From Nitrospinales bacterium (GTDB taxonomy: Bacteria > Nitrospinota > Nitrospinia > Nitrospinales > JAJDAT01): a stretch of 64,000 bases of DNA. The position numbers and the translations under genes were made by a program. How positions within the stretch are numbered: the stretch's first letter is position 1; every line of letters starts with the position of its first letter. The notes under the pieces were generated by a model. The model had not been told where the DNA came from and did not search any database. It saw only the letters and a list, made by a program, of their open reading frames with translations. Below, piece by piece: positions 9,380 through 38,188 of this stretch. The stretch is taken from the NCBI GenBank assembly GCA_038154245.1, contig JAYOZP010000002.1, forward strand, positions 114,928-178,927. Reading direction: 5' to 3'.

Positions 9380-9402
9380 TCGGAATTTATCGATTCATTT
9401 TA

Positions 9403-9449
9403 CGGAAGAAAAAATTTAATGGTTCTTTATGTTTTCTTCCGGGTTTTTT
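9403..9449 (+). terminator. Rho-independent terminator after rplY
   Basis: Perfect 10-bp stem CGGAAGAAAA / TTTTCTTCCG (9403-9412 and 9432-9441), followed by GGTTTTTT. Confidence 0.6.
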
Positions 9450-9463
9450 AAAAACTTAACGTT

Positions 9464-10033
9464 GTGTTTATTATCCTTGGTTTGGGTAATCCCGGGTTAG
9501 AATATGAGTCCACCCGCCATAATCTTGGGTTTATGGTAGTAGACGCTTTGGCGGAAAAGTATGATGTAAAGTTTTCCGGATCAACAATAAATTGTGTTTA
9601 TGGGGATGGCGAGGTAAGAAATATTCCGGTTAGAATCGGAAAACCCATGACATATATGAACGAAAGTGGGGTTGCCGCTAAAGCAATTCTTTCAGTTTCA
9701 AAATTATCCCCAAATCGTTTGATTGTTGCGCATGACGAGATTGATTTTGTATTTGGAAAAATTAAGGTAAAGCACAAAGGCGGCGATGCTGGGCAACGTG
9801 GTATTCGCTCGATCATTTACCGGTTAAATGACGACCAATTTTCCAGGATTCGAGTAGGAGTAGGAAGGCCTGAAGGTAATCGCGATATTGTTGATTATTT
9901 ATTGTCGCCGTTTGAGGAAGAGGAGTGGCCTGAAGTAAAAATTATTGTTGAACGAGCAGTTGAGACTATTGAAACAACTTTAGAAGACTTAAATCGAAAA
10001 ATAAATAATTCGGAGGAAGAGGAAGAATGCTAA
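9464..10033 (+). CDS. pth: Peptidyl-tRNA hydrolase
   Basis: [30 protein letters not shown] and [15 protein letters not shown] start. Confidence 0.9.
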
Positions 10034-12102
10034 AGGAATACAAAGGGGAACTGATTTTTGTCGCCGTTTCCTTGGTAGTTTATTTTATTTTTGCCGCGTT
10101 TGGCGCGTCGGAAAACTTCGCTTATCTGGCTGTTGTATTTGGTTTTTTTGGATTATGCGTCGCGTGGAAAATTTATGAATATGTTGACGATCATTCAGAC
10201 GGTAATGATCGAATGGTTGAGATTGCCGATTCTATTCATGAAGGAGCTATGGTTTTCCTTTCTAGAGAATACAAAATTCTAGGCTATTTTGTGGCCTTTG
10301 TTGCCCTTTTATTGATAGTTGTTATTAGCTTTCAAAAAGGACTTTGGATAGGGCTCTGGACGGCGGTTGCTTACGCAGTAGGCGCTGGTTGTTCAATGTT
10401 AGCGGGATTTTTTGGAATGAACGCCGCGACATCAGCTAACGTTCGAACCTCTCAAGCCGCTAATGAAGGCGGTCAAGCTCCTGCTCTTTCGGTTGCTTTT
10501 AATGGCGGCGCTGTTATGGGGCTTTGTGTCGCTAGTTTAGGCTTGGTAGGAGTTGGCGGATTATTTTTATTATTTGCTCGAGGAGATTCTGTTAGCGTAA
10601 TTAGCGGGTTTGCTATGGGAGCTAGTTCCATAGCTTTATTTGCTCGTGTTGGCGGTGGTATTTATACCAAGATTGCAGACGTTGGTTCGGATTTAGTTGG
10701 TAAAGTTGAAGCTGGAATTCCGGAGGACGACCCTAGAAATCCTGGAGTTATTGCAGATAACGTTGGCGATTGTGTTGGCGATACTGCAGGGCTTGGAGCT
10801 GATATTTTTGAATCCTATTGTAGTTCCATGATTGCGGCTTTAGCTATTGGCGCGACAATGTCTACGATGAGAATGGAATATATGTCATTGCCAATTATTA
10901 TCGCGATGATTGGATTAATTGCGTCTATTGTTGGTATCCGTTCTATTGCAGTGTTAAAACATATGGACCCTGCCGATGTTTTGCGCTACACCACTTTTAT
11001 TAGCGCTGGCGCAATGCTTCTTGTATCCGCAATTGTTATAAAAATTATGAATCTTCCAATGGGTGTTTTCTGGGCTCTTACTTTTGGTTGTATTGCAGGC
11101 ATAGCTATTGGATTAATCACTGAGTACTATACAGCTGGAAAACCTGTTATTAAAATTGCTGAATCGAGTAAAACCGGTGTCGCTACCGTTATGATTACAG
11201 GATTAGCGGTTGCTATGGAGAGTACAGCATTACCAATTATGACTATTGCTACCGCAATTTATTTGGCTTCCGCTACTGCAGGTCTTTATGGAGTTGCATT
11301 GGCTGCTGTTGGTATGTTAGCTACAGTTGGGATTACTATGTCAGTTGACGCTTATGGGCCGATTGCCGATAACGCTGGCGGAATTTCAGAAATGGCTAAT
11401 CTTGGACCGGAAACCCGAAAGATTACCGATGGGTTGGATGCTTTGGGCAATACCACTGCAGCTATTGGTAAGGGGTTTGCGATTGGTTCTGCGGCTCTAA
11501 CCGCCCTTGCGTTATTCACCGCATTTTGCCAAGCCGCTCATATTGAATCTATTGATATTACTAAAACGACCGTAATTGTTGGATTTTTCATTGGCGGGAT
11601 GGTTCCTTATGTTGTAGCGGCAATGACTATGACGTCTGTAGGAAAAGGGGCTTTTGAGATGGTTGAAGAAATTCGACGTCAGTTTAGAGAAATCCCAGGT
11701 TTGCTTGAAGGTACTGGAAAACCAGATACCGCAAAGTGTATTGATATTAGCACTGCGGCTGCTCTTCGAGAGATGATTGCTCCAGGGGTTATAGCATTCA
11801 TCATGCCAATTTTAATAGGCGTGGGATTTGGAGCGGAAGCTTTAGGCGGAATGTTAGTTGGCGCGACTCTTTCAGGCGTTTTGTTAGCCTTGTTAATGTC
11901 TAACGGCGGCGGCGCTTGGGATAACGCCAAAAAGTTTGTTGAAGGCGGTATGCTCGGCGGTAAAGGCTCAGAAGCTCATAAGGCGACTGTAGTTGGCGAT
12001 ACTGTTGGAGATCCTTTGAAAGATACTTCGGGACCAGCTATGAACATCCTCATTAAGTTGATGTCCATCGTTTCTTTGGTGTTGGCTCCCATGTTTGTAT
12101 AA
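10027..12102 (+). CDS. hppA: Membrane-bound proton/sodium-translocating pyrophosphatase (K+-dependent type by the GNTTAA motif)
   Basis: 691-aa polytopic protein with [46 protein letters not shown] and [16 protein letters not shown]. Confidence 0.95.
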
Positions 12103-12219: not shown

Positions 12220-13929
12220 CTAGGCAAAGGTGACGCGGTTAACTTCTTCAATGGTTGTGTAACCGCCTAGTACTTTGGAAAGAGCGTCTTGCCTAATGGT
12301 TTTGAGGCCTTGAGTTTTTTGAGCCAGTTGTCGAATGGACATTGGCGCGGCTTCTTTTAATATTAGTTCTCTAATTTCATCAGTTACAACCAAAACTTCG
12401 AATACTCCCATTCGGCCCGCATAACCGCTTTTTTTGCAAGCTTTACAACCCTCTCCTTTAAAAAGGGTAATTTTTTTGTCCGTTCCGCGGGGATATAGTT
12501 GGGCAATTTCACTTCTATCGGGTTCATAAGTAATTTTGCAGGTTTTACAAATTTTTCGAACCAAGCGCTGAGCTAAGACTCCCACAATTGAAGAAGCTAA
12601 TAAAAACGGTTCGACTCCCAAATCAGAAAGTCGGGAAATTGCTCCGGCTGTATCGTTAGTATGAAGTGTGCTAAGAACTAAATGCCCAGTTAAGGCCGCT
12701 TGAATAGCAATTTCGCTGGTCTCGCCATCTCGGATTTCCCCAACCATAATGATATCTGGATCTTGCCGCATAAGGGACCGCAGTCCAGTTGCAAAGGTGA
12801 CGCCAGCTTTAGCGTTAACCTGGGTTTGACGGATTCCAGGGAGCCTGTATTCCACAGGATCTTCAATAGTTTTAATATTTTTTCTATCGTCGTTGATAGC
12901 GCTTAATGAGCCATATAATGTTGTTGTTTTTCCACTTCCAGTAGGACCTGTAACTAAAATAACTCCATAAGGTTTAGACAAAAGAGTGGAAAATTTTTCT
13001 AAACTACTTCCCATTAAACCAGAGTCTTTCAAGTCAACATTGAGTTTGCTTTTGTCTAATATCCGGAGAACAACGTTTTCTCCATATATAGTTGGACAGG
13101 TAGAAACCCGTAGTTCAATTTCTTTGCCTCCCAGCTTTGCGGAGAAACCTCCGTCTTGAGGAGCTCTTGTTTCTGAAATATCCATATTAGCTAAGACCTT
13201 AATCCGAGAAATAAGGGCAGACTCTACTCCTTTTGGAGGGCTGGTCGCTTTAAATAGAACGCCGTCTATTCTATAACGTATAGCTAGGTCGCCTTCTTCT
13301 GGTTCTATATGGATATCACTCGCTCCATCGTCCAAAGCTTGTTTTAAAACCATTTCTACCAATTTCGCAACTGGAGTGTCGGCAGTACCCTCTTCTAGAG
13401 CTGGCGCAGCGTCTCCCTCTAAAGCGGCCTGAGACTCTTCTTTTTTTACATCTAAAGCCCCTAGGCTTTTCATCGCTGCATTTATAGATGCTGCGACTCC
13501 ATAATGTTCCTGGATGGCTCGATCAATATCTTCCTGGCTCGCTACTGCTGTTTCCACATCCATACCCGCTTGAATAGTCACTTCATCAATAGCAAAAATA
13601 TTCAAAGGATTGGCCATTGCGATATGGAGTATGCCGTCTTTAATGGCAATTGGCATTAGTTTGTGTCTTTCGGCGACGGCTTGATTTACTTTTGCTACTG
13701 CTTCCGCTTCTATTTTTACGTCTTGCATGTCTAAGAATGGGATTCTTAGCTGAGCGGCTAGATTGCTGAGCATGCGTTCTTCAGAAATAAAGCGCATTTT
13801 GATTAGGATTTCTCCTAATTGGCCGCCATTTTGTTTTTGATATGCAAGGGCTTTACTTAATTGGTCTTGATCAATAGCGCCAGCTTGGATTAAAACGTCG
13901 CCTAACCTAAGTTTTTCTCGAATAGCCAT
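12220..13929 (-). CDS. pilB: Type IV pilus assembly ATPase (GspE/PilB family)
   Basis: N-terminal T2SSE_N-type domain (LGDVLIQAGAIDQDQLSKALAYQKQNGGQLGEILI). Walker A GPTGSGKTTT, Walker B DPDIIMVGEIRD, His box GHLVLSTLHTN, and a tetracysteine motif CKTC...CKACKKSGYAGR. pilC and a prepilin also lie in this window. Confidence 0.8.
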   Translation of the reverse strand: MAIREKLRLGDVLIQAGAIDQDQLSKALAYQKQNGGQLGEILIKMRFISEERMLSNLAAQLRIPFLDMQDVKIEAEAVAKVNQAVAERHKLMPIAIKDGILHIAMANPLNIFAIDEVTIQAGMDVETAVASQEDIDRAIQEHYGVAASINAAMKSLGALDVKKEESQAALEGDAAPALEEGTADTPVAKLVEMVLKQALDDGASDIHIEPEEGDLAIRYRIDGVLFKATSPPKGVESALISRIKVLANMDISETRAPQDGGFSAKLGGKEIELRVSTCPTIYGENVVLRILDKSKLNVDLKDSGLMGSSLEKFSTLLSKPYGVILVTGPTGSGKTTTLYGSLSAINDDRKNIKTIEDPVEYRLPGIRQTQVNAKAGVTFATGLRSLMRQDPDIIMVGEIRDGETSEIAIQAALTGHLVLSTLHTNDTAGAISRLSDLGVEPFLLASSIVGVLAQRLVRKICKTCKITYEPDRSEIAQLYPRGTDKKITLFKGEGCKACKKSGYAGRMGVFEVLVVTDEIRELILKEAAPMSIRQLAQKTQGLKTIRQDALSKVLGGYTTIEEVNRVTFA

Positions 13930-14127
13930 AAGAATTGGGTTTATAAACTTAAGGAAGTCTTAATGAATTGGTCAAAAGCTCTTATTTCGAGGGCCTTTGC
14001 CGCTAATAATTTTTTACCGAAAAATTTGCCGCCGGGAAAAACTTTCCCATCGAAAAACGATCCCAAAATACTAGCAATTATCCTATAAAACCCTTTTTTA
14101 TAAGAGTTTAAGGGTTCCTGTTTTTTT

Positions 14128-26256: not shown

Positions 26257-26350
26257 TTATTGTTCCTGAAGAAAAATAAAAAAATAGGGTAGACACTATG
26301 AAAGCTTTTTTAAAACGTTTTATATACTGAATTCAACTAGGAGATATTTT

Positions 26351-27340: not shown

Positions 27341-28072
27341 ATGCTTTCCATAATACTGCCTACCTATAACGAGTCCGGTAATATTGCCAGGATGATAGAG
27401 TGGATTATGGAAGAAGTGTCTTTACCTTTAGAAGTGATTATTGTCGACGACGATTCTCCCGACAAAACTTGGGAAGTCGCCGAAGAAACTCAAAAAACTT
27501 ACCCAAATGTGAGAGTGTTGAGAAGGATTGGAAAAAGCGGTTTAACATCTGCAATTGTCGACGGTATAGAAATCGCTAAAGGTGATGTTTTTGTATGGAT
27601 GGACGCCGACTTATCTATTTCTCCCGCAAAAATACCAGAGCTAATGAAAAAGATTGACGAAGGTAACGATGTTGTCATCGCTTCCCGTTATGTAGTAGGC
27701 GGAGGAACGGTAATTATAGAAAAAGAAGACGATTCGTTGGTTTTGGTCATCTTGAGCTTTGTATTGAATTGGTTTATTCAAAGAATGCTCGACCCTAGAA
27801 TTCATGATTACACCAGCGGTTTTATCGCGATCCGCAAGCGGGTTGCCGAACATGTAGAGATTAAGGGAGATCACGGGGAATACTTTATAAGCTTAACTTA
27901 TAAAGCATTGAAAGATGGTTTTAAGGTTGTAGAGATCCCATATATTTTAGGAGCTCGCGACTATGGAGTGTCTAAAACCGGGACCCGTTGGTGGCATTAT
28001 TTTCAAAAAGGATTTAAATATTTAGGCGTTACAATCTCCATGTTGTTTTATAGAAGCAGACCTATTAAATAG
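27341..28072 (+). CDS. GT2 polyprenol-phosphate sugar synthase (Dpm1/Ppm1-like)
   Basis: LSIILPTYNESGNI, IIVDDDSPDKT, WMDADLS (DxD) and ASRYVVGGG. The start abuts the gmd stop. Confidence 0.75.
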   Translation: MLSIILPTYNESGNIARMIEWIMEEVSLPLEVIIVDDDSPDKTWEVAEETQKTYPNVRVLRRIGKSGLTSAIVDGIEIAKGDVFVWMDADLSISPAKIPELMKKIDEGNDVVIASRYVVGGGTVIIEKEDDSLVLVILSFVLNWFIQRMLDPRIHDYTSGFIAIRKRVAEHVEIKGDHGEYFISLTYKALKDGFKVVEIPYILGARDYGVSKTGTRWWHYFQKGFKYLGVTISMLFYRSRPIK

Positions 28073-28320
28073 ATTTTTCTTCACATTTTTTTAAAACTCT
28101 TTCCTGTAAATTATTCGCTTTTCGTTAGTTCTAAAATGCCTCAAAACCTATTAAACTTTTTAAGAATTAAACTGTGAGACATTGATTGAGACATGCCAAG
28201 AATACGTTTCACAAAGTTTACCTTTTGAGACATTTCATTGTTTAAATAATTATGATTATTTTTAAAAAAAGGAAAATGGAAATTGACGGATGGAAATTGG
28301 GAACTTTTTTGAATTTAATT

Positions 28321-30903
28321 TCAATTATTCAAATTACGATTGCTAGGGCGTATATGAATACCTAGTTTTTCATTTATCCATTGTTTATCTTTATATTCAA
28401 TTTGGTTTAAGTAGCTATGTTGAATTACTAATTCTTGGAGCAATCGCCTACCAATCGGATTTCCTTCTAGGTCCGAGTATAATTTATCCAAAAGTTTTCT
28501 TGGAATATCTTTTGTGAATTCTAAATGGATGGCAATTTCAACTAAACGATGGGCAGGAGAATTTTTATTTTCCTCACTTATTTCTTCAAATACTTCTAGT
28601 AATTTTTCTGTACCTATAGAATTCCCTATTTTCCTTATTACCGAAAAAGAGGTTCCATAACATAACATTACGAATATGTTCTTTGCTATTTTAGCAATAT
28701 CCTTACTAGACAAATCACTTTTTACTTTGATGAGAGACCCAATGAAGTTTATTAATTGGTCTTTATCGTCTTTTGTTGCTGAAAGAAAAAAATTTAAGAA
28801 TTTCAATCCGGAGGAATAAGCGGATAATGTTAAATCTTTTAAGTCTTGCTTAGTTAATGAGCCGTATCTATTTCTTAAAATTTGACCAATGATTTCAACA
28901 ATCCTCACCGAGCGGTTAATTTCGCGATAAATTTTATTTTCATCCTCCGGGGTTAAAATCTCTAATTCTTCTTCTGTATCTTCAATCTCATCTTGAATTT
29001 CATCTTTAGTTTTAAGACGTTTTTTTCTTTCCTCATCTACATTTTTTTGATCAATCACCAAACTAGGGATTGTATCCATATAGTCGTAAAGGTAATCAGT
29101 ATCAGAAATATCTAATGTTATTGGATCAGTGCCATCAAATATTGTCAAAGCAGTAAGAAGTATTTCATCGGTAACATATTGATTTTTTGAATGGTGAACT
29201 AAAAAAATCAAAATATTTGCGTTTTTTTCCGTATGTAAGTTATTACATAAATCTTCAACAATTTTTTTATAACTTTCATTATTCAAATGATCGGCTATAT
29301 GTTTAGCGACATAAAAATAAAAAATATACCTATAGTTAAAACTATAATCGCCATCTTTTTCTTTAATGATTCCCGAAGTGATTAAGACTTTAATAATTTT
29401 TTCATGAGACTCTAAGACAAAGCTTTTGCTATATTCTTTTTTAAATTGGTCTAATTGTTTTTCGTTAATAGACTCACTCCCCGTTAAAAAAATAAAATAA
29501 GCTAGTTGGGTGGAATAATTTAAATAACCATCAAAATCACTTGCATTAATTTTGGCCTTACTTAATGCCCCTTGAATTAAGTTTTGGTAACAATGGCCAT
29601 AAGAAGTCAAGGAATAGTCAGAAGGAGTAGTGGTATCAAGTAATTGTATGATTGATAAAACATAAATTGGCTTAGGGGGAACAATGTTTTCTCTTATTAT
29701 GGCGTCAACATGACACATTACGGTATCAGTTTCATTATGAATTGTTACAACATCAATCGTATCTTCTTCCCCCATGCTAACCCATTTTTCAATTAGTTCA
29801 CATCGCCGGGAATTTCCGAAAGGAAATATTTCATATTGTTCAAAATCGGCCAGTTCAATAAACTTTGTTTCCATATACATAATTGAGGTATGAGAAAATA
29901 ATACCAAATGATCAACTAAGCTTAAGACATTATCGAGAAATTTCTTTTGCGCTCGGATATTTAATTTTATTTGGTCATAATCATCTACAATTAAAATTAT
30001 TTTACAATTTTCGGAAATAAAATCTTTGTATGTTTGGTTAGAGTATTGTTCAGAAATTAGCTTACTTATTAAGTCCTCGGGTTTTTGGGAACTAATTTTT
30101 ATTCCATTGCAAAATAAAGGAAGGCAATTATCATTAAAATAAGATTTAAAAAATATTTTGGCTAAAGAAGTCTTTCCGCTTTGTTCTTCTCCCATGATTA
30201 GAACTTTATTTGGTAGATTTTCTACTTTATCTAGAGTTTTTGAGTTTATTTTTCTATCAATTACTTCAATATTTTTTTTTATCTTTTTTAAATCAGGAAA
30301 AACAAATATATCGTCTAAATAAACTTTTTCCTTTTTGCGATTTTGAAAAATAACCTCGGTATCATTTAGTTTGTTAGCGAAATCGGAATTTAATGTAAAT
30401 TTATTGAATAAAAAATTTGAATCAGTTGTTTTCTCGAATGAAGAATTAATTTTTTTCACTGAATCTTTTATTGAATTAATAACTTGAATCCATGCGGAAT
30501 CTCTTTGATTACCATAAGTACTAACGGGTTTTCCATCTTTTGGTGCAGCTAAATACTCTCCTAGTTCACTATCTTGCCAATCACAAGGCTTTATTATTAT
30601 TGGGATAATTCTACATTCATTATTTTTTAATCGATCTAACGTTTCTTTTAGCTCAACTTCATAGCAGTACCAGGATTTTAGAAAATTTGCGCTAACCAAA
30701 AAAGCTATTAACTTAGAATTTAATAAATTTTTTTTTATTTCTGGATCTAATTTATCTCCAACGACCAATTTATTATCGGTCCACTCTCCTATTAAACCAT
30801 TCCTTTTGATGGTTGAAATGTGCGTTAATAGTTCATCTAAATATGTTTTATCGTTATGAGAATAGCTAATAAACAACTTTAATGGAGGAGGTTTGTCGTT
30901 CAT
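28321..30903 (-). CDS. TIR-domain + P-loop STAND-like NTPase + helical C-terminal region (candidate single-gene defence protein)
   Basis: aa 9-110 form a TIR_2-like domain (LFISYSHNDKTYLDEL, AFLVSANFLKSWYCYEVEL with the conserved Glu, IIPIIIKPC). Walker A GEEQSGKT is at aa 238-245 and Walker B IILIVDDYD at aa 302-309. About 450 further aa have no motif I recognise. The two 60-nt lines I counted are 20-25% GC. Confidence 0.75.
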   Translation of the reverse strand: MNDKPPPLKLFISYSHNDKTYLDELLTHISTIKRNGLIGEWTDNKLVVGDKLDPEIKKNLLNSKLIAFLVSANFLKSWYCYEVELKETLDRLKNNECRIIPIIIKPCDWQDSELGEYLAAPKDGKPVSTYGNQRDSAWIQVINSIKDSVKKINSSFEKTTDSNFLFNKFTLNSDFANKLNDTEVIFQNRKKEKVYLDDIFVFPDLKKIKKNIEVIDRKINSKTLDKVENLPNKVLIMGEEQSGKTSLAKIFFKSYFNDNCLPLFCNGIKISSQKPEDLISKLISEQYSNQTYKDFISENCKIILIVDDYDQIKLNIRAQKKFLDNVLSLVDHLVLFSHTSIMYMETKFIELADFEQYEIFPFGNSRRCELIEKWVSMGEEDTIDVVTIHNETDTVMCHVDAIIRENIVPPKPIYVLSIIQLLDTTTPSDYSLTSYGHCYQNLIQGALSKAKINASDFDGYLNYSTQLAYFIFLTGSESINEKQLDQFKKEYSKSFVLESHEKIIKVLITSGIIKEKDGDYSFNYRYIFYFYVAKHIADHLNNESYKKIVEDLCNNLHTEKNANILIFLVHHSKNQYVTDEILLTALTIFDGTDPITLDISDTDYLYDYMDTIPSLVIDQKNVDEERKKRLKTKDEIQDEIEDTEEELEILTPEDENKIYREINRSVRIVEIIGQILRNRYGSLTKQDLKDLTLSAYSSGLKFLNFFLSATKDDKDQLINFIGSLIKVKSDLSSKDIAKIAKNIFVMLCYGTSFSVIRKIGNSIGTEKLLEVFEEISEENKNSPAHRLVEIAIHLEFTKDIPRKLLDKLYSDLEGNPIGRRLLQELVIQHSYLNQIEYKDKQWINEKLGIHIRPSNRNLNN

Positions 30904-31253
30904 AATTAATGGTCTATTAAGGTGATATAAAAATAGTTGATTAGATTTTTAGAATATTACCATATTCATTTACCATAATGGTATACCAAATTTAATTCCA
31001 ATTTAGAAAATGCATCAATAGCCTTTTTAAATAAAAAGAATTTCTTCGAGTTAGACCAGATGGCAAAGTGGTTTTACTCGGATAAGTTTTTTAAAGTTGG
31101 CTATTTAGCTAGTTTTCTTCAAGCGAATTGGATTTTTTTACTACGGTGAGCAGCAATAAACGATACACAAGCTTTAAGAATTTTTCTTTTAAAAGTGAGA
31201 TACATGGGTGAGATACATAGTATATAATGTGATCTTTCTTAGTGACTAATCAA

Positions 31254-31262
31254 TGTTATAAT
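31254..31262 (+). promoter_or_regulatory. Candidate extended -10 promoter element for ssrA
   Basis: TGTTATAAT ends 24 nt before the mature tmRNA 5' end. No good -35 was found. Confidence 0.3.
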
Positions 31263-31286
31263 AAGTTAACGCATGAATCGAAATTT

Positions 31287-31640
31287 GGGGGCGACCTGGC
31301 TTCGACGGGAGTAAAGAGACCCTGGTTGCATGTACGGGATACCGTTGGCCCGTTAAAAAACGGTAACATCATAATTGCTAACGATTATGACATCGCTGTA
31401 GCAGCTTAATTTCTGCTACCGTTCTCTCCTTCTTTCGTCCGTAAGAGGGAAGCGAACGTTATAAAACGGACTGGCTAGATTTGTGAGCCTTGGGCAAATT
31501 TGGCGAGATTTTTAAAGGCTGGCTTAAATTAAATCCTGTTCGTGGGAGTTGATTAAAGCGAGATCTTAAAACACGAAATAAGCATGTAGACGCCTTGCGT
31601 TAAAGACTTTCGGACGGGGGTTCGATTCCCCCCGCCTCCA
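31287..31640 (+). ncRNA. ssrA: tmRNA (SsrA), tag peptide ANDYDIAVAA
   Basis: The 5' GGGGGCG pairs with the 3' CGCCTCC, including a G3:U pair, with discriminator A at 31640. T-arm GGGGGTTCGATTCCCCC. Resume codon GCT is at 31377, and the reading frame GCT AAC GAT TAT GAC ATC GCT GTA GCA GCT TAA ends at 31409. CCA is not encoded. Confidence 0.95.
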
Positions 31641-31881
31641 TAAATTTCCATATTCCCCCCTATAATATAATAAACTACCATCCTCCGCAGTCTGGGAAAC
31701 AGAGGTATTTAAAGTTAAATTTCGGTAGGGTCAGAAAAAGAAAAAGCCCCTGAAAGGTAAACCTCCAGAGGCTTTTTTCGACAATATTATGGGGAGCGGT
31801 CTAAAGAAGTATGCTCCAGAATTTGATTCCAATCTTCTAAAGTTTTAAATAGCTGTTTAGATATTTCTCTCCTCACCTCCA
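31641..31881. repeat. Islet repeat unit 1 (segments A1-B1-C1)
   Basis: A1 31641-31701 (TAAATTTCCATATTCCC...AGTCTGGGAAACA). B1 31702-31780 includes an imperfect hairpin flanked by A and T runs. C1 31801-31881 ends in a tmRNA-3'-like sequence. Confidence 0.7.
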
Positions 31882-31882
31882 A
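31787..31882 (-). CDS. Conserved micro-ORF, copy 1 (31 aa, TTG start)
   Basis: (M)EVRREISKQLFKTLEDWNQILEHTSLDRSP. Within codons 6-27 it differs from copy 3 at 5 synonymous codons and one E/D change. Followed by a conserved ATAATATTGTCGAAAAAA + hairpin + T-run. Confidence 0.4.
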   Translation of the reverse strand: MEVRREISKQLFKTLEDWNQILEHTSLDRSP

Positions 31883-32095
31883 ATTATTGCGATCTTATAA
31901 AATAAAAGAAAGCTCCCTGAAAATTGACCTTTGAAGTTCAACGAAACGAAAACGGGAAAACGTCTGTTTTTTTCATAAATTTCCGGTAATTTATGTTTTC
32001 GTTTTCTTAGAATTCAAACCACGAGAAGTTTTTGCAAATTCCGACAAAATATTATAGACTGAATATTATCTGTTAATTTTCTGTTTAGGTGGATT

Positions 32096-32395
32096 ATGTT
32101 TTCAATGGATGCTATATACCCCGTGTCAGACTTTAGCCGTAAACCCGCTGAACATATCAAACGTTTAAAAAAAACGGGTAAGCCAGCAATACTCACGGTG
32201 AACGGTAAAGCCCAGATTGTCGTGCAGGATGCCAAAGCCTATGAAGAAATGGTTGAGCTTTTAGATAGCTTGGAGAGCATTGCCTTATCTGCAAAACAAC
32301 ACGATGAAGGAAAAGCGTCACCAGCAAAAGAAGTTTTTGCTAGACTGGAGAAGCGTTTATCTAAAAAATACCCGAATGCAACGCTTCAAGATTAG
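32096..32395 (+). CDS. Phd/YefM-family antitoxin
   Basis: IYPVSDFSRKPAEHIKRLKKTGKPAILTVNGKAQIVVQDAKAYEEMVE is the typical Phd/YefM N-terminal fold signature. SD AGGTGGA. Overlaps the toxin start by 20 nt. Confidence 0.8.
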   Translation: MFSMDAIYPVSDFSRKPAEHIKRLKKTGKPAILTVNGKAQIVVQDAKAYEEMVELLDSLESIALSAKQHDEGKASPAKEVFARLEKRLSKKYPNATLQD

Positions 32396-32678
32396 TATTC
32401 CGCTCCATGTTGAAAATGAAATTGAGCATTATATTGATGTCATTGCCCAAGATAATATCAAAGCGGCTTTGAACTGGTATCGAGAGATCGAAGCGCAAAT
32501 TTATACCTTAGATCAAGATCCGAAACGTTGCCCGGTAGCATTTGAAAACCGTTTTCATGAATACGAAATAAGAAACCTAATATTCGGCAATTATCGAGTG
32601 CTCTTCCGTATAGAAAATAAGACAGTTCAAATTCTCCATGTCAAACACGGAAAAATGGAACGCAAACCGTTAGAGTAG
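32376..32678 (+). CDS. RelE/ParE-family toxin
   Basis: 100 aa counted from M33 of the tracked ORF: MQRFKISIPLHVENEIEHYIDVIAQDN...YEIRNLIFGNYRVLFRIENKTVQILHVKHG. This follows the ParE/RelE pattern, and the gene is paired with an upstream antitoxin. Confidence 0.75.
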   Translation: MQRFKISIPLHVENEIEHYIDVIAQDNIKAALNWYREIEAQIYTLDQDPKRCPVAFENRFHEYEIRNLIFGNYRVLFRIENKTVQILHVKHGKMERKPLE

Positions 32679-32750
32679 GGAAATCTGAAAAGTTTAGGGC
32701 GGCGCTTTGAAAAAACTATTTTGTTCTGTTTCAAGTTGTCTATACCTCAC

Positions 32751-33040
32751 ATTCCGGGAAACAGAGGTTTTAAAGGGGGTAAATTTCGATAAGATCAGAA
32801 AAAGAGAAAGCCTCCAGAGGAAGGACATCTGAGGGCTGATTTTTTTTGGTAGTATAATTACCCAAAGAAGTATGTTCTAGAATCTGGTTCCATTCTTCTA
32901 AGGTCTTAAATAATTGTTTCGATATTTCTCCCCTTGCCTCCATAACTTTCCATATTCCCCTCTATAATATAATAAGCTACCATCTTCCGTAGTCTGGGAA
33001 ACAAAAAAGCCTTCGAAGGAAAACCTCCGAGGGAGAGCCT
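32751..33040. repeat. Islet repeat unit 2 (segments B2-C2-A2 plus a partial B)
   Basis: B2 from GGGAAACAGAGGTTTTAAAGG at 32756. C2 32863-32942. A2 32943-33003 is near-identical to A1. A partial hairpin GCCTTCGAAGGAAAACCTCCGAGGG follows. Confidence 0.7.
32770..32943 (-). CDS. Conserved micro-ORF, copy 2 (57 aa, lacks the early stop and reads through the hairpin)
   Basis: MEARGEISKQLFKTLEEWNQILEHTSLGNYTTKKNQ... Codons 6-28 differ from copy 3 at 7 codons, all synonymous. Confidence 0.35.
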   Translation of the reverse strand: MEARGEISKQLFKTLEEWNQILEHTSLGNYTTKKNQPSDVLPLEAFSFSDLIEIYPL

Positions 33041-33095
33041 TAACCTTTCCGCATAAGGATGGATTTAAATAAAGATATTCTGCTATAATAAAAAT

Positions 33096-33329
33096 ATGAG
33101 TGAAACATACCTAAATGGAAAAATCACTGTAACATCTCTTTCTGCGCCAACGGCTAATGACTTGGAGAAGTTACGGGTATTGTCAGAGGAAGATAGAAAC
33201 ACTTTGCTTAACGAAGCGTTGGAACGTGGTCGTAATAGCGGGGTGAGCGACAAAACAGTTGATGAAATTTGGGATTCAGCGCTTCTAAAAGCCAAAGCAA
33301 TAAAAGAAAAATCCCAATATGCGCTATAG
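33096..33329 (+). CDS. Putative antitoxin (ParD/CC2985-like C-terminal motif)
   Basis: 77 aa. LEKLRVLSEEDRNTLLNEALERGRNSGVSDKTVDEIW resembles the ParD-family C-terminal segment. Its stop overlaps the ATG of a parE-like reading frame. Confidence 0.5.
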   Translation: MSETYLNGKITVTSLSAPTANDLEKLRVLSEEDRNTLLNEALERGRNSGVSDKTVDEIWDSALLKAKAIKEKSQYAL

Positions 33330-33604
33330 GCTTTCTAAGAAAGCTGTAGCTGATCTTGAGAATATTCTTATCGAAGGAATTCTTACTTTTGGCGAGTTGC
33401 AAGCCTTAAAATATCAGGATTCATTTAAGAAAACATTCGATTTGCTTGCCTATATTAGGACGTTGGAGCGAGCGTAGCAACACAAATGAACATCGATTTT
33501 TGCATGGTTCGCATGTTATCTATTATCGTATAGAGTCTGAGGAGATTGTGATTGAAAGTATAATTTATGGTCCAATCATTACAGATATTTGGGGCGATAG
33601 GTGA
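33319..33604 (+). pseudogene. parE-family toxin gene inactivated by a frameshift near 33450
   Basis: Frame 1 reads MRYRLSKKAVADLENILIEGILTFGELQALKYQDSFKKTFDLLAYIRTLERA* (stop at 33475). Frame 2 continues PILGRWSERSNTNEHRFLHGSHVIYYRIESEEIVIESIIYGPIITDIWGDR* (stop at 33602-33604). Joined, the two frames match the ParE pattern. Confidence 0.7.
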
Positions 33605-33763
33605 AGGGAAAAAGCCCCCGGAGGAAAACCTCCGAGGGCTGTTTTTTCGACAATATTATTTCCTATGGAGACGGAAAGTCACCTAAAGAAGTATGCTCCA
33701 GAATTTGATTCCATTCTTCCAGGGTTTTAAATAATTGTTTCGATATTTCATCCCCTGGCTCCA
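33605..33763. repeat. Islet repeat unit 3 (segments B3-C3)
   Basis: Hairpin GCCCCCGGAGG-AAAA-CCTCCGAGGGC flanked by A and T runs (33611-33650). C3 33683-33763. Confidence 0.7.
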
Positions 33764-33764
33764 T
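33663..33764 (-). CDS. Conserved micro-ORF, copy 3 (33 aa)
   Basis: MEPGDEISKQLFKTLEEWNQILEHTSLGDFPSP. The ATG is the reverse complement of the tmRNA-3'-like CCAT. Followed by a conserved 3' region and hairpin terminator. Confidence 0.45.
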   Translation of the reverse strand: MEPGDEISKQLFKTLEEWNQILEHTSLGDFPSP

Positions 33765-33852
33765 TTCTCACCAGATAATTAATCAAGTGTATTTGTGTGT
33801 TACAACCCACCTTTTAAGTTTATAAAAAACTTAATTACCTCTTTCAAAATAA

Positions 33853-35304
33853 ATGTCTAATTTTCTGAAGATTAAAGCCTGGCTGAAAACTCCAGATAAT
33901 TATTTACTAGCAATTACTTTTATATTTCTAATTGTTGGTATTTATTTTCGTTTTGAAGCATTCGAGGTGGTGCGAATAACAGAATGGGTTACCAGAGATT
34001 TTGATAGAGCCTTTCATTTATTCGATGGAGATTATATTCCTCTTGCAGGGTCGGAGAGAAATGCGGGAGGAAGGCTTCTAGGACCTTTTTTATATTTCTT
34101 TTTGGCAATTCCCTTATTTTTTAAATATTCCTATGAATCGATATACGCTTTCAATTTGATTCTAAATATTGCTTCTCTTATTTTTTTCTTTTGGTTGATT
34201 AAAAAGTATTTTGGAAAAGTTACAGGAGCTTTTGCTGCAATTTTATTATCGGTGAGCATTGTTCACATAGATAGCGCGGGTTTCCCCATAAATCCTACCT
34301 TTATATTTCCTTTGATTTTCATATTCTTATGGCTCTTATTCAAAATTGTAATAGAAAATCAAATAAAGTATTTCTCCTGGATTTTTGTGACGATTTCATT
34401 GGGAATCCAAATGCATTTTTCACTGGCAACCTATTACCTCATTCCATTGGTTGCCTGTTTAGCGTTAAAAATCAAAATCACTAAAACCGAGATAGTCAAA
34501 ACCGTACTTTTCTCACTTCTTTGTTTTACGCCTTATCTGATTTATAAATTCCAATTTTATGAACCAGAAATTAAATTGACTGAAACTTTCTTTAACCAGG
34601 GAATCTCGTTGGTTTCTTTTTTAAAGACAATTTTGCTTCATGATTTGTTTTTAAGAATTAATCAAGAAATGTCAATTTACGGATATTACACGATACCAAA
34701 CTATATCCGAATTCTAAATTATCTGTTTTCGATAATTTCATTTTATGGTTTGATCTTTTTAATCGTTATTCATTATAGAAAAAACAATTTTCAGAAATGC
34801 AAAAAAGAAGTTTTGTTAATTTTAACATTTTATATTCCCGCGCTTATTTATGCCCTAAGTAAGCCGCAAAACGTCTGGCACTTTTGGTATTACTTTATTT
34901 TTATTATTCCGATGATTCTGATTAAGGCTCGTTTTTTATTCAACTGTATACAAAAAATAACCAATGAAACTTTATTAAAAATTGCGAGTTTTTCGGTCGT
35001 TACATTTATTTCTTTTATAGCTTTAATTAGTTTAATAAGTTTTCATAAAGTGAGCGTAGGCTTTGCGCAGATCGTGAGATTAGAAAGTTTTAGTAATCCT
35101 AGAAACCTGACTTTGGTTTATAGCAGACTAATGTCCAATTTAGGATTAACGCCCAAGGAATTTTTTGATAGCGCGTTTATTGAAGGAGACTCGGTAGGAT
35201 CGTTTAAATTTTTAGAATTGGCTTACGATAAGCAAGCTGTGAAAAGGGCAAGCCTTCCAACGCTCAAAGCTGTTTTTATATTGTGCCGGGTGGGTATAAG
35301 TTAG
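33853..35304 (+). CDS. Polytopic membrane protein, GT-C/ArnT-PMT_2-like
   Basis: 483 aa with about 11 hydrophobic segments. The first loop DFDRAFHLFDGDYIPLAGSERNAGGRLLGPFLYFFLAIPLFF resembles the ArnT/PMT_2 family. No search was run. Confidence 0.4.
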   Translation: MSNFLKIKAWLKTPDNYLLAITFIFLIVGIYFRFEAFEVVRITEWVTRDFDRAFHLFDGDYIPLAGSERNAGGRLLGPFLYFFLAIPLFFKYSYESIYAFNLILNIASLIFFFWLIKKYFGKVTGAFAAILLSVSIVHIDSAGFPINPTFIFPLIFIFLWLLFKIVIENQIKYFSWIFVTISLGIQMHFSLATYYLIPLVACLALKIKITKTEIVKTVLFSLLCFTPYLIYKFQFYEPEIKLTETFFNQGISLVSFLKTILLHDLFLRINQEMSIYGYYTIPNYIRILNYLFSIISFYGLIFLIVIHYRKNNFQKCKKEVLLILTFYIPALIYALSKPQNVWHFWYYFIFIIPMILIKARFLFNCIQKITNETLLKIASFSVVTFISFIALISLISFHKVSVGFAQIVRLESFSNPRNLTLVYSRLMSNLGLTPKEFFDSAFIEGDSVGSFKFLELAYDKQAVKRASLPTLKAVFILCRVGIS

Positions 35305-36041
35305 GAAAAAAAATAATTCTTTCTGAAAAGATAATGGAATCTCTAAATAATCTTTTTCAAGATAAGTCGATTAATATTGTCAAACAAGGCTCATTTTTGT
35401 TTTCCGATTTAGAGCAATATAAAGATAAGAAGATTCATGTTTTTGAATACAAACCAAGAATTAGTCAACCTTGTTATACAAATACAAGAAATAACTTTCT
35501 AACAGGAAAGGACAATAAAGATTATCTTAAAGAGAGTTATGGCGTTAACAAAAACCTTGATGGAGAACTTTTTATAAAACCTATATTTAAGCAATCAGAT
35601 TTTGATAATAATTCGAATTTAGTATCCTGGAAAAATAAGTCTATCGTTTTTAACTCAAAATTGAACACTCCAATTAGGATTGAAGTTTCATTAGTAAAGA
35701 ATGACGATAAATATAGTTTACGTAGCGATTTAAATTATTATAGTTGGGGTAAGAAAAATACAAATTTGTTTCATATCAAAAAATTAGATCTGAAGGTTTT
35801 GAGGAAAGAATCTGTTGGTAAGAAAAATAATTTATCTTTTTCAATTATTGATCCTCAAACCTGGGTTTCGAAAGTTAGATCTAAGTCGGTTGGCGTAGAG
35901 AACTTTGATTGGTATAGAGAGTTTGATTTTGTCGAGGTTAACAACTTACAAAAAGATAGTTTTGACGTTGAGCTTCATTGGGAAGTTATGTTTCCCAATA
36001 GGAAGGATCAATGCTGTCTAAAATTTAAAACAATTCTTTAA
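35283..36041 (+). CDS. Hypothetical protein (probable start ATG 35334)
   Basis: Open frame overlapping the preceding membrane-protein gene. Lys/Asn-rich. No recognisable motif. Confidence 0.4.
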   Translation: MPGGYKLGKKIILSEKIMESLNNLFQDKSINIVKQGSFLFSDLEQYKDKKIHVFEYKPRISQPCYTNTRNNFLTGKDNKDYLKESYGVNKNLDGELFIKPIFKQSDFDNNSNLVSWKNKSIVFNSKLNTPIRIEVSLVKNDDKYSLRSDLNYYSWGKKNTNLFHIKKLDLKVLRKESVGKKNNLSFSIIDPQTWVSKVRSKSVGVENFDWYREFDFVEVNNLQKDSFDVELHWEVMFPNRKDQCCLKFKTIL

Positions 36042-36082
36042 TATTTTCTGAATGCCTAGACTATAATTGCTTTTCATTTTTT

Positions 36083-36778
36083 ATGATTGCTCAAGTATAT
36101 TGCAAACATTTGGATTTGGCTGGCGCGGAAATTTGCCAAAAAGCCGGAGCGGATCATGTAGGCTGGCAAATAGATTTAAATGAATTTGAGAGTTGGGAAA
36201 GTATCCAAACTCGTATAAAAGAATATGTGAAAATTTCAGAGTATCTGAGCGATCAAAAAATTTCTTCGGCTTTTCTTGTTCATCCAACGTTAGATGGAGA
36301 GCTGATAAAGAAAATTTTGGACATCGTTCGGCCAACAATTTATTTTGCAAGTGGCGAACGGTCTATAGAGACCATCCGTTGGTTATCCCGCAAAAAAAAC
36401 GCTCCACAAATTATGGTTCCCATTGGAGTACCAACAAAAGACTGTCTATTGCCAGACTATGATCCCATCTCAGAGATGAAAAATTATTCGTCTTTTGTTC
36501 AATGGTTTACTACCGACACGATCAATCCGAGCGAAAGCGTTGAATCATTTGGTTGTTCTGGGAAGACGGGTAATTGGGACGCTTTTCCCGAGTTGATAGA
36601 AAAGAGTCCGTGTCCGGTAATTGTTTCTGGTGGAATGAATTCTAAGAATATTCTGGATGTTTATAAAATTTGCAAGCCATTCGGATTCGACGCCCATTCC
36701 TCAGTTTGTAAAGACGGTTATCCAGACTTAGAGTTGGCAAAAGAATTTGCACAAGCAGTTCACGCCTTAGATAGTTGA
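36083..36778 (+). CDS. Phosphoribosylanthranilate isomerase (TrpF)-like TIM-barrel protein
   Basis: GADHVGW near the N-terminus. C-terminal GKTGNWDAF...PVIVSGGMNSKNILDVYKICKPFGFDAHSSV resembles the TrpF phosphate-binding end. Confidence 0.45.
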   Translation: MIAQVYCKHLDLAGAEICQKAGADHVGWQIDLNEFESWESIQTRIKEYVKISEYLSDQKISSAFLVHPTLDGELIKKILDIVRPTIYFASGERSIETIRWLSRKKNAPQIMVPIGVPTKDCLLPDYDPISEMKNYSSFVQWFTTDTINPSESVESFGCSGKTGNWDAFPELIEKSPCPVIVSGGMNSKNILDVYKICKPFGFDAHSSVCKDGYPDLELAKEFAQAVHALDS

Positions 36779-36844
36779 CGGAGTTTTAATAAATAGCAGA
36801 AGGCGAAGAAGTTAATCTTTTTGCATTGGCGGGGAGTGGGGTGT

Positions 36845-38188
36845 TTAACTTACGGGTTGGTTTTCAATAGCTTTTGCAACTAAATCATAGTCTAAGGCCC
36901 TGTCGATACGCATTGGAACGATTTGGCCTGGCAATACTTCGCTTTCTTCTATGATGATTTGTCCGTCTATTTCTGGAGCTTGAAAAGAAGCTCTGCCAGT
37001 CATCAAGAAACTCTCTTCTTCCAGGCCTTCCACTAAAACTTGATAAGTTTTTCCAATTTTTCTCTGGTTTTTGCGAAACGAGATTTCTTTTTGAATTCGC
37101 ATCAACTCATTTTTTCTTTCTCCGGCAACTTCCGATGGAACTTTGTCCGAAAAGTCAAAAGCGGCGGTTCCCTCTTCGTCTGAGTATGTAAAAACCCCTA
37201 CATGATCAAATTCGGCTTCGTCTAAAAATTTTGCCAATTTTTGAAAACGTTCTTCAGTTTCTCCAGGAAACCCGACTATGAATGTTGTACGTAAAGCGAT
37301 ATCTGGAATTTTATTTCTACAGTTTTCGATCATGTTCCTAACGAGAGTTTCTGTTTCTTGACGTTTCATTAACTTTAACATTTCGTTATCGATATGTTGA
37401 AGCGGAACATCAATATAATTACAGACTTTTTCTTCGTCGCGAATACATTCAAGAAGAGTGTCGTCGATTAAAGTTGGGTAGCAGTATAGTAATCTGAGCC
37501 AATCAACGTCTTTTACTTTTACCAGTTCCTTGAGTAGTTGAACCAAACCATTTTTTAGTCCTAAATCGTTTCCATACAGGGTAGTGACTTGCGATACTAG
37601 ATTGAATTCGCGAACTCCCTTTTGGGTTAGCGCGGTGGTTTCTTCGACAATGGATTCAATGGTTCTGCTGCGGAAAGCTCCTCTAATTTTTGGAATATAG
37701 CAGAAGGCGCATTTGAAGGAACAACCTTCTCCGATTTTCAAGTAGGTAGAGTAAAAAGGAGTGATTAATTTTCTTTGACCGTAGGATTCAAAATATTCTG
37801 GAATGATGGTTGGTTTTCGATCTTCATCCAGATTTGTTGACTCTTTTTCTAAAAGGTTTTTTAGCTGTGGGTAGCCGTCGACTCCCATGAGCAAATCGAT
37901 TTCCGGGATTTCATCGATTAGTTCTTCTCCGTATCTTTGGGAAAGGCAACCCGTCACGACTAACTTGGAGCAATTACCATCGGTTTTTAGTTGAGCCATT
38001 TCAAAAATTGCGTCGATAGATTCTTTTTTAGAAGATTCAATAAAGCCGCAAGTATTGACAATCAGAACATCGGCTTCTTCATGAGCTGCGGTCCACTCGT
38101 AACCATTTTTTAGTAAATCTCCTAGAGCCAACTCTGTATCTACCGTGTTTTTGGGGCAACCCAGGCTCACCATTCCTATTTTTTTCAT
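36845..38188 (-). CDS. rimO: Ribosomal protein S12 methylthiotransferase
   Basis: MTTase N-domain MVSLGCPKNTVDTE, radical-SAM CSFKCAFC, C-terminal TRAM domain, 447 aa. Confidence 0.85.
   Translation of the reverse strand: MKKIGMVSLGCPKNTVDTELALGDLLKNGYEWTAAHEEADVLIVNTCGFIESSKKESIDAIFEMAQLKTDGNCSKLVVTGCLSQRYGEELIDEIPEIDLLMGVDGYPQLKNLLEKESTNLDEDRKPTIIPEYFESYGQRKLITPFYSTYLKIGEGCSFKCAFCYIPKIRGAFRSRTIESIVEETTALTQKGVREFNLVSQVTTLYGNDLGLKNGLVQLLKELVKVKDVDWLRLLYCYPTLIDDTLLECIRDEEKVCNYIDVPLQHIDNEMLKLMKRQETETLVRNMIENCRNKIPDIALRTTFIVGFPGETEERFQKLAKFLDEAEFDHVGVFTYSDEEGTAAFDFSDKVPSEVAGERKNELMRIQKEISFRKNQRKIGKTYQVLVEGLEEESFLMTGRASFQAPEIDGQIIIEESEVLPGQIVPMRIDRALDYDLVAKAIENQPVS

Follow-up and report, generated by a model that had tools for sequence, protein, structure and literature searches.

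DS-8 (DefensePredictor system 8; WP_032203427.1) is a single E. coli protein that was validated as an antiphage system in 2026 (PMC13092281). It consists of an N-terminal metallophosphatase and an NTPase, called NACHT by the DefensePredictor authors, and defense is lost upon mutation of either the phosphatase (D52A, N84A) or the Walker A lysine (K375A) (PMC13092281). Here we describe a protein that carries the body of DS-8 behind a different N-terminal domain, in a 64,000-nucleotide stretch of a Nitrospinales contig (JAYOZP010000002.1, positions 114,928 to 178,927; hereafter the window). An original prediction, made from the letters of the window alone, had pointed to an 860-amino-acid (aa) open reading frame (ORF) as a candidate single-gene defense system in which a TIR domain is fused to an NTPase resembling the signal transduction ATPases with numerous domains (STAND). 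The ORF is present exactly as given, at 28321..30903 on the minus strand, and we refer to it as the TIR-STAND gene. We consider it likely that its product is a single-protein sensor against phages (or other mobile elements), similar in design to nucleotide-binding leucine-rich repeat receptors (NLRs), which belongs to the DS-8/PDC-S60 family of STAND proteins and uses a TIR domain as its effector.

The relationship with DS-8 spans most of the protein. The NCBIfam model DS8_antiphage (NF053861) aligns with aa 154-849 over model positions 292-994 (E 1.4e-188, 628.9 bits), a score that stays below the 790-bit equivalog cut-off since model positions 1-291 find no counterpart. With this score, partial coverage of the model and a TIR domain instead of the metallophosphatase, the protein falls outside the DS-8 equivalog group. 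It does belong to the wider superfamily defined by the DS-8/PDC-S60 body, which comprises the NTPase with its Walker A lysine, a winged-helix domain and a helical C-terminus. A bona fide DS-8 member encoded by a Paenisporosarcina plasmid (1101 bits, model positions 1-993) is collinear with aa 166-856 of the window protein at 29% identity (BLASTP, E 9e-76), and the alignment takes in the C-terminal EI(I/M)GQI(L/M)RN motif. K375, which is required in DS-8, corresponds to K244 here and is conserved, and both proteins are encoded by a single gene with homologous NTPase, winged-helix and C-terminal helical parts. They differ in the effector, a metallophosphatase of ~300 aa in DS-8 and a TIR domain of ~150 aa in the window protein, at whose N-terminus neither Pfam nor NCBIfam gave a Metallophos match. 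Body homology together with the TIR N-terminus thus makes the window protein the switch-and-tail body of DS-8 with another effector.

The same body is recognized by PADLOC as the candidate system PDC-S60 (models PDLC05050 and PDLC05051). PDLC05050 matches aa 141-852 (E 9e-98), with profile positions 1-162 left unaligned to the TIR domain. Since this profile matches both the window gene and the body of every effector class described below, PADLOC would label the gene PDC-S60, and the PADLOC check suggested in the original prediction indeed returned this candidate system. At E ≤ 1 the window protein matched only PDC-S60, ThsB1, PDC-S66 and SAVED_TIR. To our knowledge, PDC-S60 is a prediction from genomic association only, and a literature search for PDC-S60 and nSTAND4 found no mention of either.

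Using the body alone (aa 160-860) as query against 1.84 billion representatives, we recovered 2,749 clusters at E ≤ 1e-3, including 1,611 at E ≤ 1e-30. Among the best 150 of these 2,749 clusters, the N-terminus was a TIR domain in 57 and a metallophosphatase of the DS-8 type in ~50, while 14 consisted of the body only; smaller groups carried a PNP_UDP_1 phosphorylase, a caspase, an HD-CE domain or a trypsin-like protease. In every effector class, the match falls on the same segment of both PDLC05050 and the DS-8 model. Among the genome loci, HD-CE also occurs in a Desulfobacter protein (L068), and in L080 a SIR2 gene overlaps the body-only gene that follows it. The interchange of effectors that target NAD, cleave proteins or degrade nucleotides, on a common NTPase chassis, is the hallmark of NLR-like immune receptors. 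It has been noted for bNACHT proteins, for which TIR and SIR2 N-termini were reported, and, in a 2026 survey, for prokaryotic STAND proteins generally (PMC13581612).

Full-length relatives of the TIR type occur in Gammaproteobacteria, Bacteroidota, Planctomycetota, Zixibacteria and one archaeal metagenome-assembled genome, and some are carried by Vibrio parahaemolyticus plasmids. Hundreds of such homologues have been deposited, mostly annotated merely as "TIR domain-containing protein". The nearest homologue of the window protein shares 54% identity with it, and the exact protein was found only within the window's own population. A tblastn search of 50,697 phage records gave no match to the family.

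The TIR effector domain covers aa 8-158 (30430..30882, minus strand) and passes the profile search as a TIR_2-type domain, as originally proposed (PF13676, aa 11-114, E 1.8e-11, 45 bits for a cut-off of 28). Residue conservation was read from an alignment of 110 homologues. The original prediction had placed the catalytic-type glutamate at E82, two positions away from the invariant residue. E84 (codon 30652-30654, minus strand) is a glutamate in 110/110 homologues, whereas position 82 is a glutamate in 48 of them and otherwise D, G, N, Q or R; an E82A mutant would therefore hit the wrong residue. E84 lies where TIR domains have their conserved catalytic glutamate, at the beginning of helix alpha-C, and a HMMER alignment pairs it with the glutamate of the Cat1 TIR domain. 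S13, Y14, D18, S71, S77 and W109 are also invariant, and the window ORF is intact and retains all 27 residues that are invariant in the family. When a profile of the family was compared with solved structures, relatives were found for the TIR domain only (Cat1, plant TIRs, TLRs and AbTIR), and the family profile found no solved structure for the body of any member. By sequence, the nearest solved TIR domains are AbTIR, Cat1, PdTIR and RPS4. That AbTIR, Cat1 filaments and the TIR domains of plant TIR-NLRs are NADases acting in assemblies supports an effector role for this domain, which we predict from its sequence to cleave NAD+ around E84.

A linker or arm (aa 159-230; 30214..30429, minus strand) follows, in which the homology to the DS-8 body begins (aa 154 in the NCBIfam alignment, aa 166 by BLASTP). 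The P-loop nucleotide-binding domain then extends over aa 231-380 (29764..30213, minus strand). Both of its expected motifs proved to be conserved across the 110 homologues: a Walker A of the form G238-x-E-Q-x-G-K244-T245, whose lysine (codon 30172-30174, minus strand) is present in 109/110 sequences, and a Walker B of the form hhhhD307-D/N308 (D307/D308 in the window protein). Around the P-loop (aa 231-376), Pfam returned sub-threshold matches to NACHT, AAA and nSTAND3, and the domain resembles the NOD (nucleotide-binding oligomerization domain) modules of NLRs in Foldseek searches. The helical and winged-helix part of the module, delimited by secondary structure, covers aa 381-540 (29284..29763, minus strand) and contains the nSTAND_NTPase4 signature (PF24406, aa 478-532, E 3.8e-11, 43.4 bits for a cut-off of 27). 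With this signature above its cut-off, the Walker motifs and a NOD fold like that of NLRs, the protein belongs to the nSTAND4 clade; its NACHT score (PF05729, 14.2 bits) remains below the cut-off of 26.7.

The layout of a TIR domain, a STAND NTPase and a helical C-terminus that had been read from the sequence is borne out by these profiles and by a confident full-length AlphaFold2 model (mean predicted local distance difference test, pLDDT, 88.2; predicted TM-score, pTM, 0.71). The best matches of the full model in the PDB were the core of the RPP1 TIR-NLR resistosome (E 1e-8), the NACHT modules of NLRP3 and NOD2, and bacterial Avs4, all with low global TM-scores (~0.2), as multi-domain proteins would be expected to give. 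The C-terminal domain, a putative sensor, spans aa 541-860 (28324..29283, minus strand; domain model with pLDDT 87 and pTM 0.83). It is all-helical and devoid of known motifs, as anticipated, and measures ~320 aa. No LRR, WD40 or recognizable TPR was found in it. It carries the invariant motif G673-Q-I-x-R-N-R679, with the invariant residues G673, N678 and R679. On its own, it had no significant match in the PDB (best E 0.93) or in predicted structures of viral proteins (best E 0.48). The suggestion of a new sensor thus holds in a limited sense, that of a domain that is uncharacterized. In the TIR subfamily, mean pairwise identity is 43% for the C-terminal domain, 42% for the TIR domain and 36% for the nucleotide-binding domain.

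These parts suggest a mechanism in which the protein would be held at rest as an inactive monomer by its NTPase module together with the conserved helical C-terminus. The C-terminal domain would sense an infection cue and trigger an ATP-dependent oligomerization of the STAND module, for which we assume that the NTPase lysine is needed because this was shown for DS-8. Oligomerization would cluster the TIR domains into composite NADase active sites around E84, and the destruction of NAD+ would leave an infected cell that no longer supports phage replication, a form of abortive infection. The step from oligomerization to TIR activation is modeled on other proteins: RPP1 and ROQ1 form tetrameric resistosomes in which TIR NADase sites are assembled, and oligomerization activates the TIR domains of SARM1 and of bacterial TIR filaments (TIR-STING, TIR-SAVED, Cat1).

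The TIR domain might instead make a signal, as in Thoeris, with a cyclic adenosine diphosphate ribose-type or related nucleotide activating an effector whose gene lies at another genomic site. In PADLOC, the domain scores best with the ThsB1-type TIR profile (aa 10-156, E 4.7e-39), a Vibrio homologue weakly matches ThcB4 (type III Thoeris), and some Halomonas loci have an extra stand-alone TIR gene beside the TIR-STAND gene. ThsB, however, is a stand-alone protein with a ThsA partner, while the TIR domain studied here is fused to a STAND module, and neither the window nor the recurrent neighbors of the family include a ThsA, so that the locus is not a Thoeris system. More broadly, the 64-kb window holds no gene for a ThsA-like, SLOG, Macro or caspase receptor, no neighbor is conserved across 80 homologous loci, and TIR is replaced elsewhere in the family by enzymes that are executioners or degraders in their own right (SIR2, PNP, caspase, trypsin, HD and phosphatase domains). 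The lack of a partner gene and the nature of the sister effectors lead us to favor a direct executioner, and we regard a signal-generating TIR domain as unlikely.

The stand-alone TIR genes lie just upstream of a full-length TIR-STAND gene in three Halomonas/Vreelandella loci (L038, L040 and L041, at about 9995-10460), and encode 146-aa proteins with 47% identity to the fused TIR domain. In L040 the fused domain has lost the FISYSH motif and reads VIIYNRKD, which suggests a division of labor between the stand-alone and the fused TIR domains.

The predicted executioner has a familiar design. It shares with plant TIR-NLRs such as RPP1 and ROQ1 the order of a TIR domain, an NTPase switch and a (here putative) C-terminal sensor, and with animal NLRs a NACHT-like module, NLRP3 and NOD2 being among its best PDB fold matches. 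It differs from both by the low TM-scores, the NACHT score below cut-off and another C-terminal domain. The resemblance is architectural and does not imply membership in those clades. In Avs, bNACHT and Rst_TIR-NLR systems, one gene likewise encodes a sensor at the C-terminus, a STAND NTPase and an N-terminal effector that varies within a family, and Avs4 is among the fold matches of the model; unlike them, the window protein has an NTPase with the nSTAND_NTPase4 signature and matches no PADLOC model of Avs1-5, bNACHT or Rst_TIR-NLR at E ≤ 1. The 2026 STAND survey, with its 198 defense-associated clades, discusses no TIR-Avs in its main text (PMC13581612).

The gene occupies an accessory hotspot. 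It lies between a family 2 glycosyltransferase gene (27341..28072, plus strand; Pfam) whose synteny is conserved in all relatives, and the tmRNA gene ssrA (31287..31640, plus strand; ARAGORN; Rfam RF00023, 204.7 bits). The distance from the glycosyltransferase stop codon to ssrA is 3214 bp, in line with the 3.2-kb gap first noticed. To compare the slot, we collected relatives by way of the neighboring GDP-mannose dehydratase cluster; they are related to the window at the species and not the strain level (76-87% nucleotide identity in flanking genes, 94-98% in tmRNA). They keep the synteny of flgE, TPR genes, methyltransferase, dehydratase, glycosyltransferase and ssrA. In seven of them (L088, L089, L090, L093, L097, L100 and L101) the slot is empty, with a gap of 83-103 bp. 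In another, L085, the gap of 2573 bp (L085:11723-14295) is filled by a type I-C retron with a reverse transcriptase (RT)-Toprim fusion (PADLOC RT-Toprim model, E 3.5e-216; RT gene 12284-14014), preceded by a 12-nt inverted repeat GGCTTACAGGCA/TGCCTGTAAGCC (12127 and 12255) typical of msr/msd. The same slot is thus empty, occupied by a retron or, in the window, occupied by the TIR-STAND gene.

The borders of the cargo can be drawn from these comparisons. On the left, a remnant of the sequence found upstream of ssrA in empty sites (..GTAAATTATTCGCTTTTCGTTAGTTCTAAAATGC; ...CGTTAGTTCTAAAATGC) is present at 28106..28139 (plus strand; comparison with L088, L089, L090 and L093). On the right, the junction is the TATAAT that resembles the ssrA -10 box (31257-31262). 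The cargo, which is also marked by its low GC content, therefore extends over about 28140..31256. The ~95 bp directly upstream of the tmRNA gene (31191..31286, plus strand) are common to the window and the retron-bearing L085, as seen from alignment and from repeat and pattern searches, and include a perfect tandem repeat of GTGAGATACAT x2 (31195-31218) that is conserved in L085. Similarity between the left remnant and the right promoter region is only loose, and we do not claim a target-site duplication. The original prediction placed the gene next to tmRNA, which holds, but the cargo sits 5' of the -10 box, whereas classical islands insert at the 3' end of ssrA. No integrase or transposase was found among the cargo ORFs, and a classical tmRNA-targeted 3'-end island is accordingly ruled out. 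Searches for flanking direct or inverted repeats, such as att sites or transposon ends, gave only short AT-rich matches at chance level. The simplest reading would be that cargo is exchanged by recombination between the conserved anchors.

The composition of the gene is also atypical. Its GC content is 29.2%, compared with 38.3 ± 3.5% in 50 window ORFs (z = -2.6, second lowest), and its GC content at third codon positions (23%) is the lowest among them. Along the gene, the GC content of 60-nt lines varies between 17% and 43%, with a median of 28%. The AT-richness is thus a genuine outlier, though a more moderate one than the 20-25% originally counted in two such lines.

Could the protein be a housekeeping or regulatory STAND NTPase, with the TIR domain serving as an interaction module only and ssrA nearby by coincidence? 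Some TIR domains are merely scaffolds. The 2026 survey describes many STAND clades as non-defense (PMC13581612). A housekeeping role would nevertheless have to account for the lack of the gene in seven species-level relatives whose synteny is otherwise conserved, for its atypical composition and for an invariant catalytic-type glutamate, and an exchange of effectors that takes in proteases and NAD-targeting enzymes would be unexpected for a housekeeping regulator. None of the 80 loci places a homologue in a conserved non-defense operon, a finding that would have spoken against the original prediction. We hold this explanation to be very improbable.

The reading as antiphage defense is supported by the homology of the body to the validated DS-8, by fusions to a range of immune-type effectors and by a variable slot that is empty or filled by a retron in relatives, and we expect that the window copy would protect against phages. 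The protein may alternatively be an NLR-like conflict system directed at plasmids or other mobile elements, a device for kin discrimination or programmed cell death, or silent or non-functional cargo. Plasmids carry family members while the 50,697 phage records yielded none, no expression signals were recognized at the gene, and the trigger of DS-8 itself is not known. DS-8 was, however, validated specifically against phages, a retron, itself a known antiphage system, takes its place in the slot of a relative, and the ORF is intact with 27/27 family-invariant residues. We judge this set of alternatives quite unlikely.

Several points weigh against an antiphage TIR-STAND executioner. A validated function would be transferred, on the strength of sequence similarity, across an effector swap and ~29% identity, at a score below the equivalog cut-off, and phage resistance has been demonstrated in the body superfamily for E. 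coli DS-8 alone. The profile that best matches the TIR domain is that of ThsB from Thoeris, a type that produces signals and does not deplete NAD+; NAD+ depletion would here be the predicted output. The C-terminal domain is assumed to be a sensor by analogy with other STAND proteins, yet it is as conserved as the remaining protein, and it found no structural analogue in the PDB or among viral predicted structures. The hotspot comparison comprises two occupied sites and species-level relatives only. Finally, a promoter scan gave fewer promoter-like sites than shuffled sequence, and no terminator was found for the TIR-STAND gene.

Upstream of the start codon by ~60-90 bp (window 30960-31000), we observed a palindrome, TGGTATACCA (30979), with repeated GGTAA motifs nearby, a region that might serve as an operator. 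Before the ATG, no Shine-Dalgarno-like sequence was evident. Near the left end of the cargo, GAGACAT occurs three times (window 28176, 28188 and 28227). These repeats and the tandem GTGAGATACAT at the other end could be operators, recombination sites or chance occurrences.

The absence of partner genes noted originally extends to the family loci compared: no conserved partner was found among the 80 loci, no neighbor family occurs in more than 7 TIR-type loci, and nothing ThsA-like is encoded in the window, whose other 50 ORFs gave only generic ATPase or regulator matches to PADLOC models. The commonest neighbors of TIR-type loci are type I restriction-modification (R-M) subunits (6-7 loci), and integrases occur in 4 loci. 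The largest neighbor cluster overall is a conserved 168-182-aa ORF without Pfam match, which lies directly upstream of the body (at about 9396-9971) in nine cyanobacterial loci that lack a TIR domain (L060, L062-L064, L067, L069, L071, L074 and L077). Several cyanobacterial bodies look interrupted in crude ORF calls and may represent split genes, frameshifts or pseudogenes. The Paenisporosarcina antarctica plasmid that encodes the DS-8 member (NZ_CP038016.1, L096:1-13947) has its DS-8 gene between an Eco57I-type R-M gene and a gene of a Pycsar effector family, with a recombinase nearby, in a small plasmid defense island.

Around the slot, a NUDIX gene between the C-methyltransferase and GDP-mannose dehydratase genes (L088:9495-9938 and equivalents) is present in all other relatives but missing in L085 and in the window (26257-26350), which suggests that these two genomes are each other's closest kin. 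As the original prediction noted, toxin-antitoxin genes lie close to ssrA, in the form of a Phd/ParE pair downstream of it (32096-32678). The segment downstream of ssrA (window 31641-36800) likewise varies between relatives. In the window it also contains a pair of small genes that resisted annotation (33096-33604), a PMT_2-type glycosyltransferase gene of low GC content (33853-35304), a 252-aa ORF with the lowest GC content of the window (35283-36041) and a PRAI-like gene. In L088 and L093, ssrA is directly followed by a radical-SAM gene (window 36845-38188), while L100 and L101 have a Fic gene in this segment and L090 an RT, a caspase-like gene and a KAP NTPase. A 55-aa ORF call at 31242-31409 is spurious, as it lies inside the tmRNA gene; equivalent calls of 45-46 aa occur in the contigs of relatives.

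The single-gene TIR-STAND defense architecture is of a kind already known, and the family that might have appeared new is already modeled, by PADLOC as the candidate PDC-S60 and, for its DS-8 branch, by NCBI. The locus thus extends a known pattern and does not overturn current understanding; what the analysis mainly adds is the corrected residue E84, the link to DS-8, the series of effector swaps and the comparison of three slot states. A bolder proposal would take the TIR-fused branch as a distinct Avs-like family, its C-terminal GQIxRNR domain as a new kind of sensor for a cue that no STAND protein is known to recognize, and the site upstream of ssrA as an integrase-independent exchange site for single-gene defense cassettes (TIR-STAND or retron), but we find it doubtful. 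The slot, empty, retron-bearing or TIR-STAND-bearing, nonetheless provides a clean example of a defense hotspot in an uncultured lineage.

For the family, the finding links the recently validated DS-8 to a far larger modular family of ~2,700 representative clusters. As TIR is the commonest form among the best body matches, the DS-8 body appears as a general sensor and switch chassis that is not tied to phosphatase chemistry. The occurrence of one chassis with a TIR domain as opposed to a phosphatase, SIR2, PNP or caspase offers a natural comparison for what the C-terminal domain senses.

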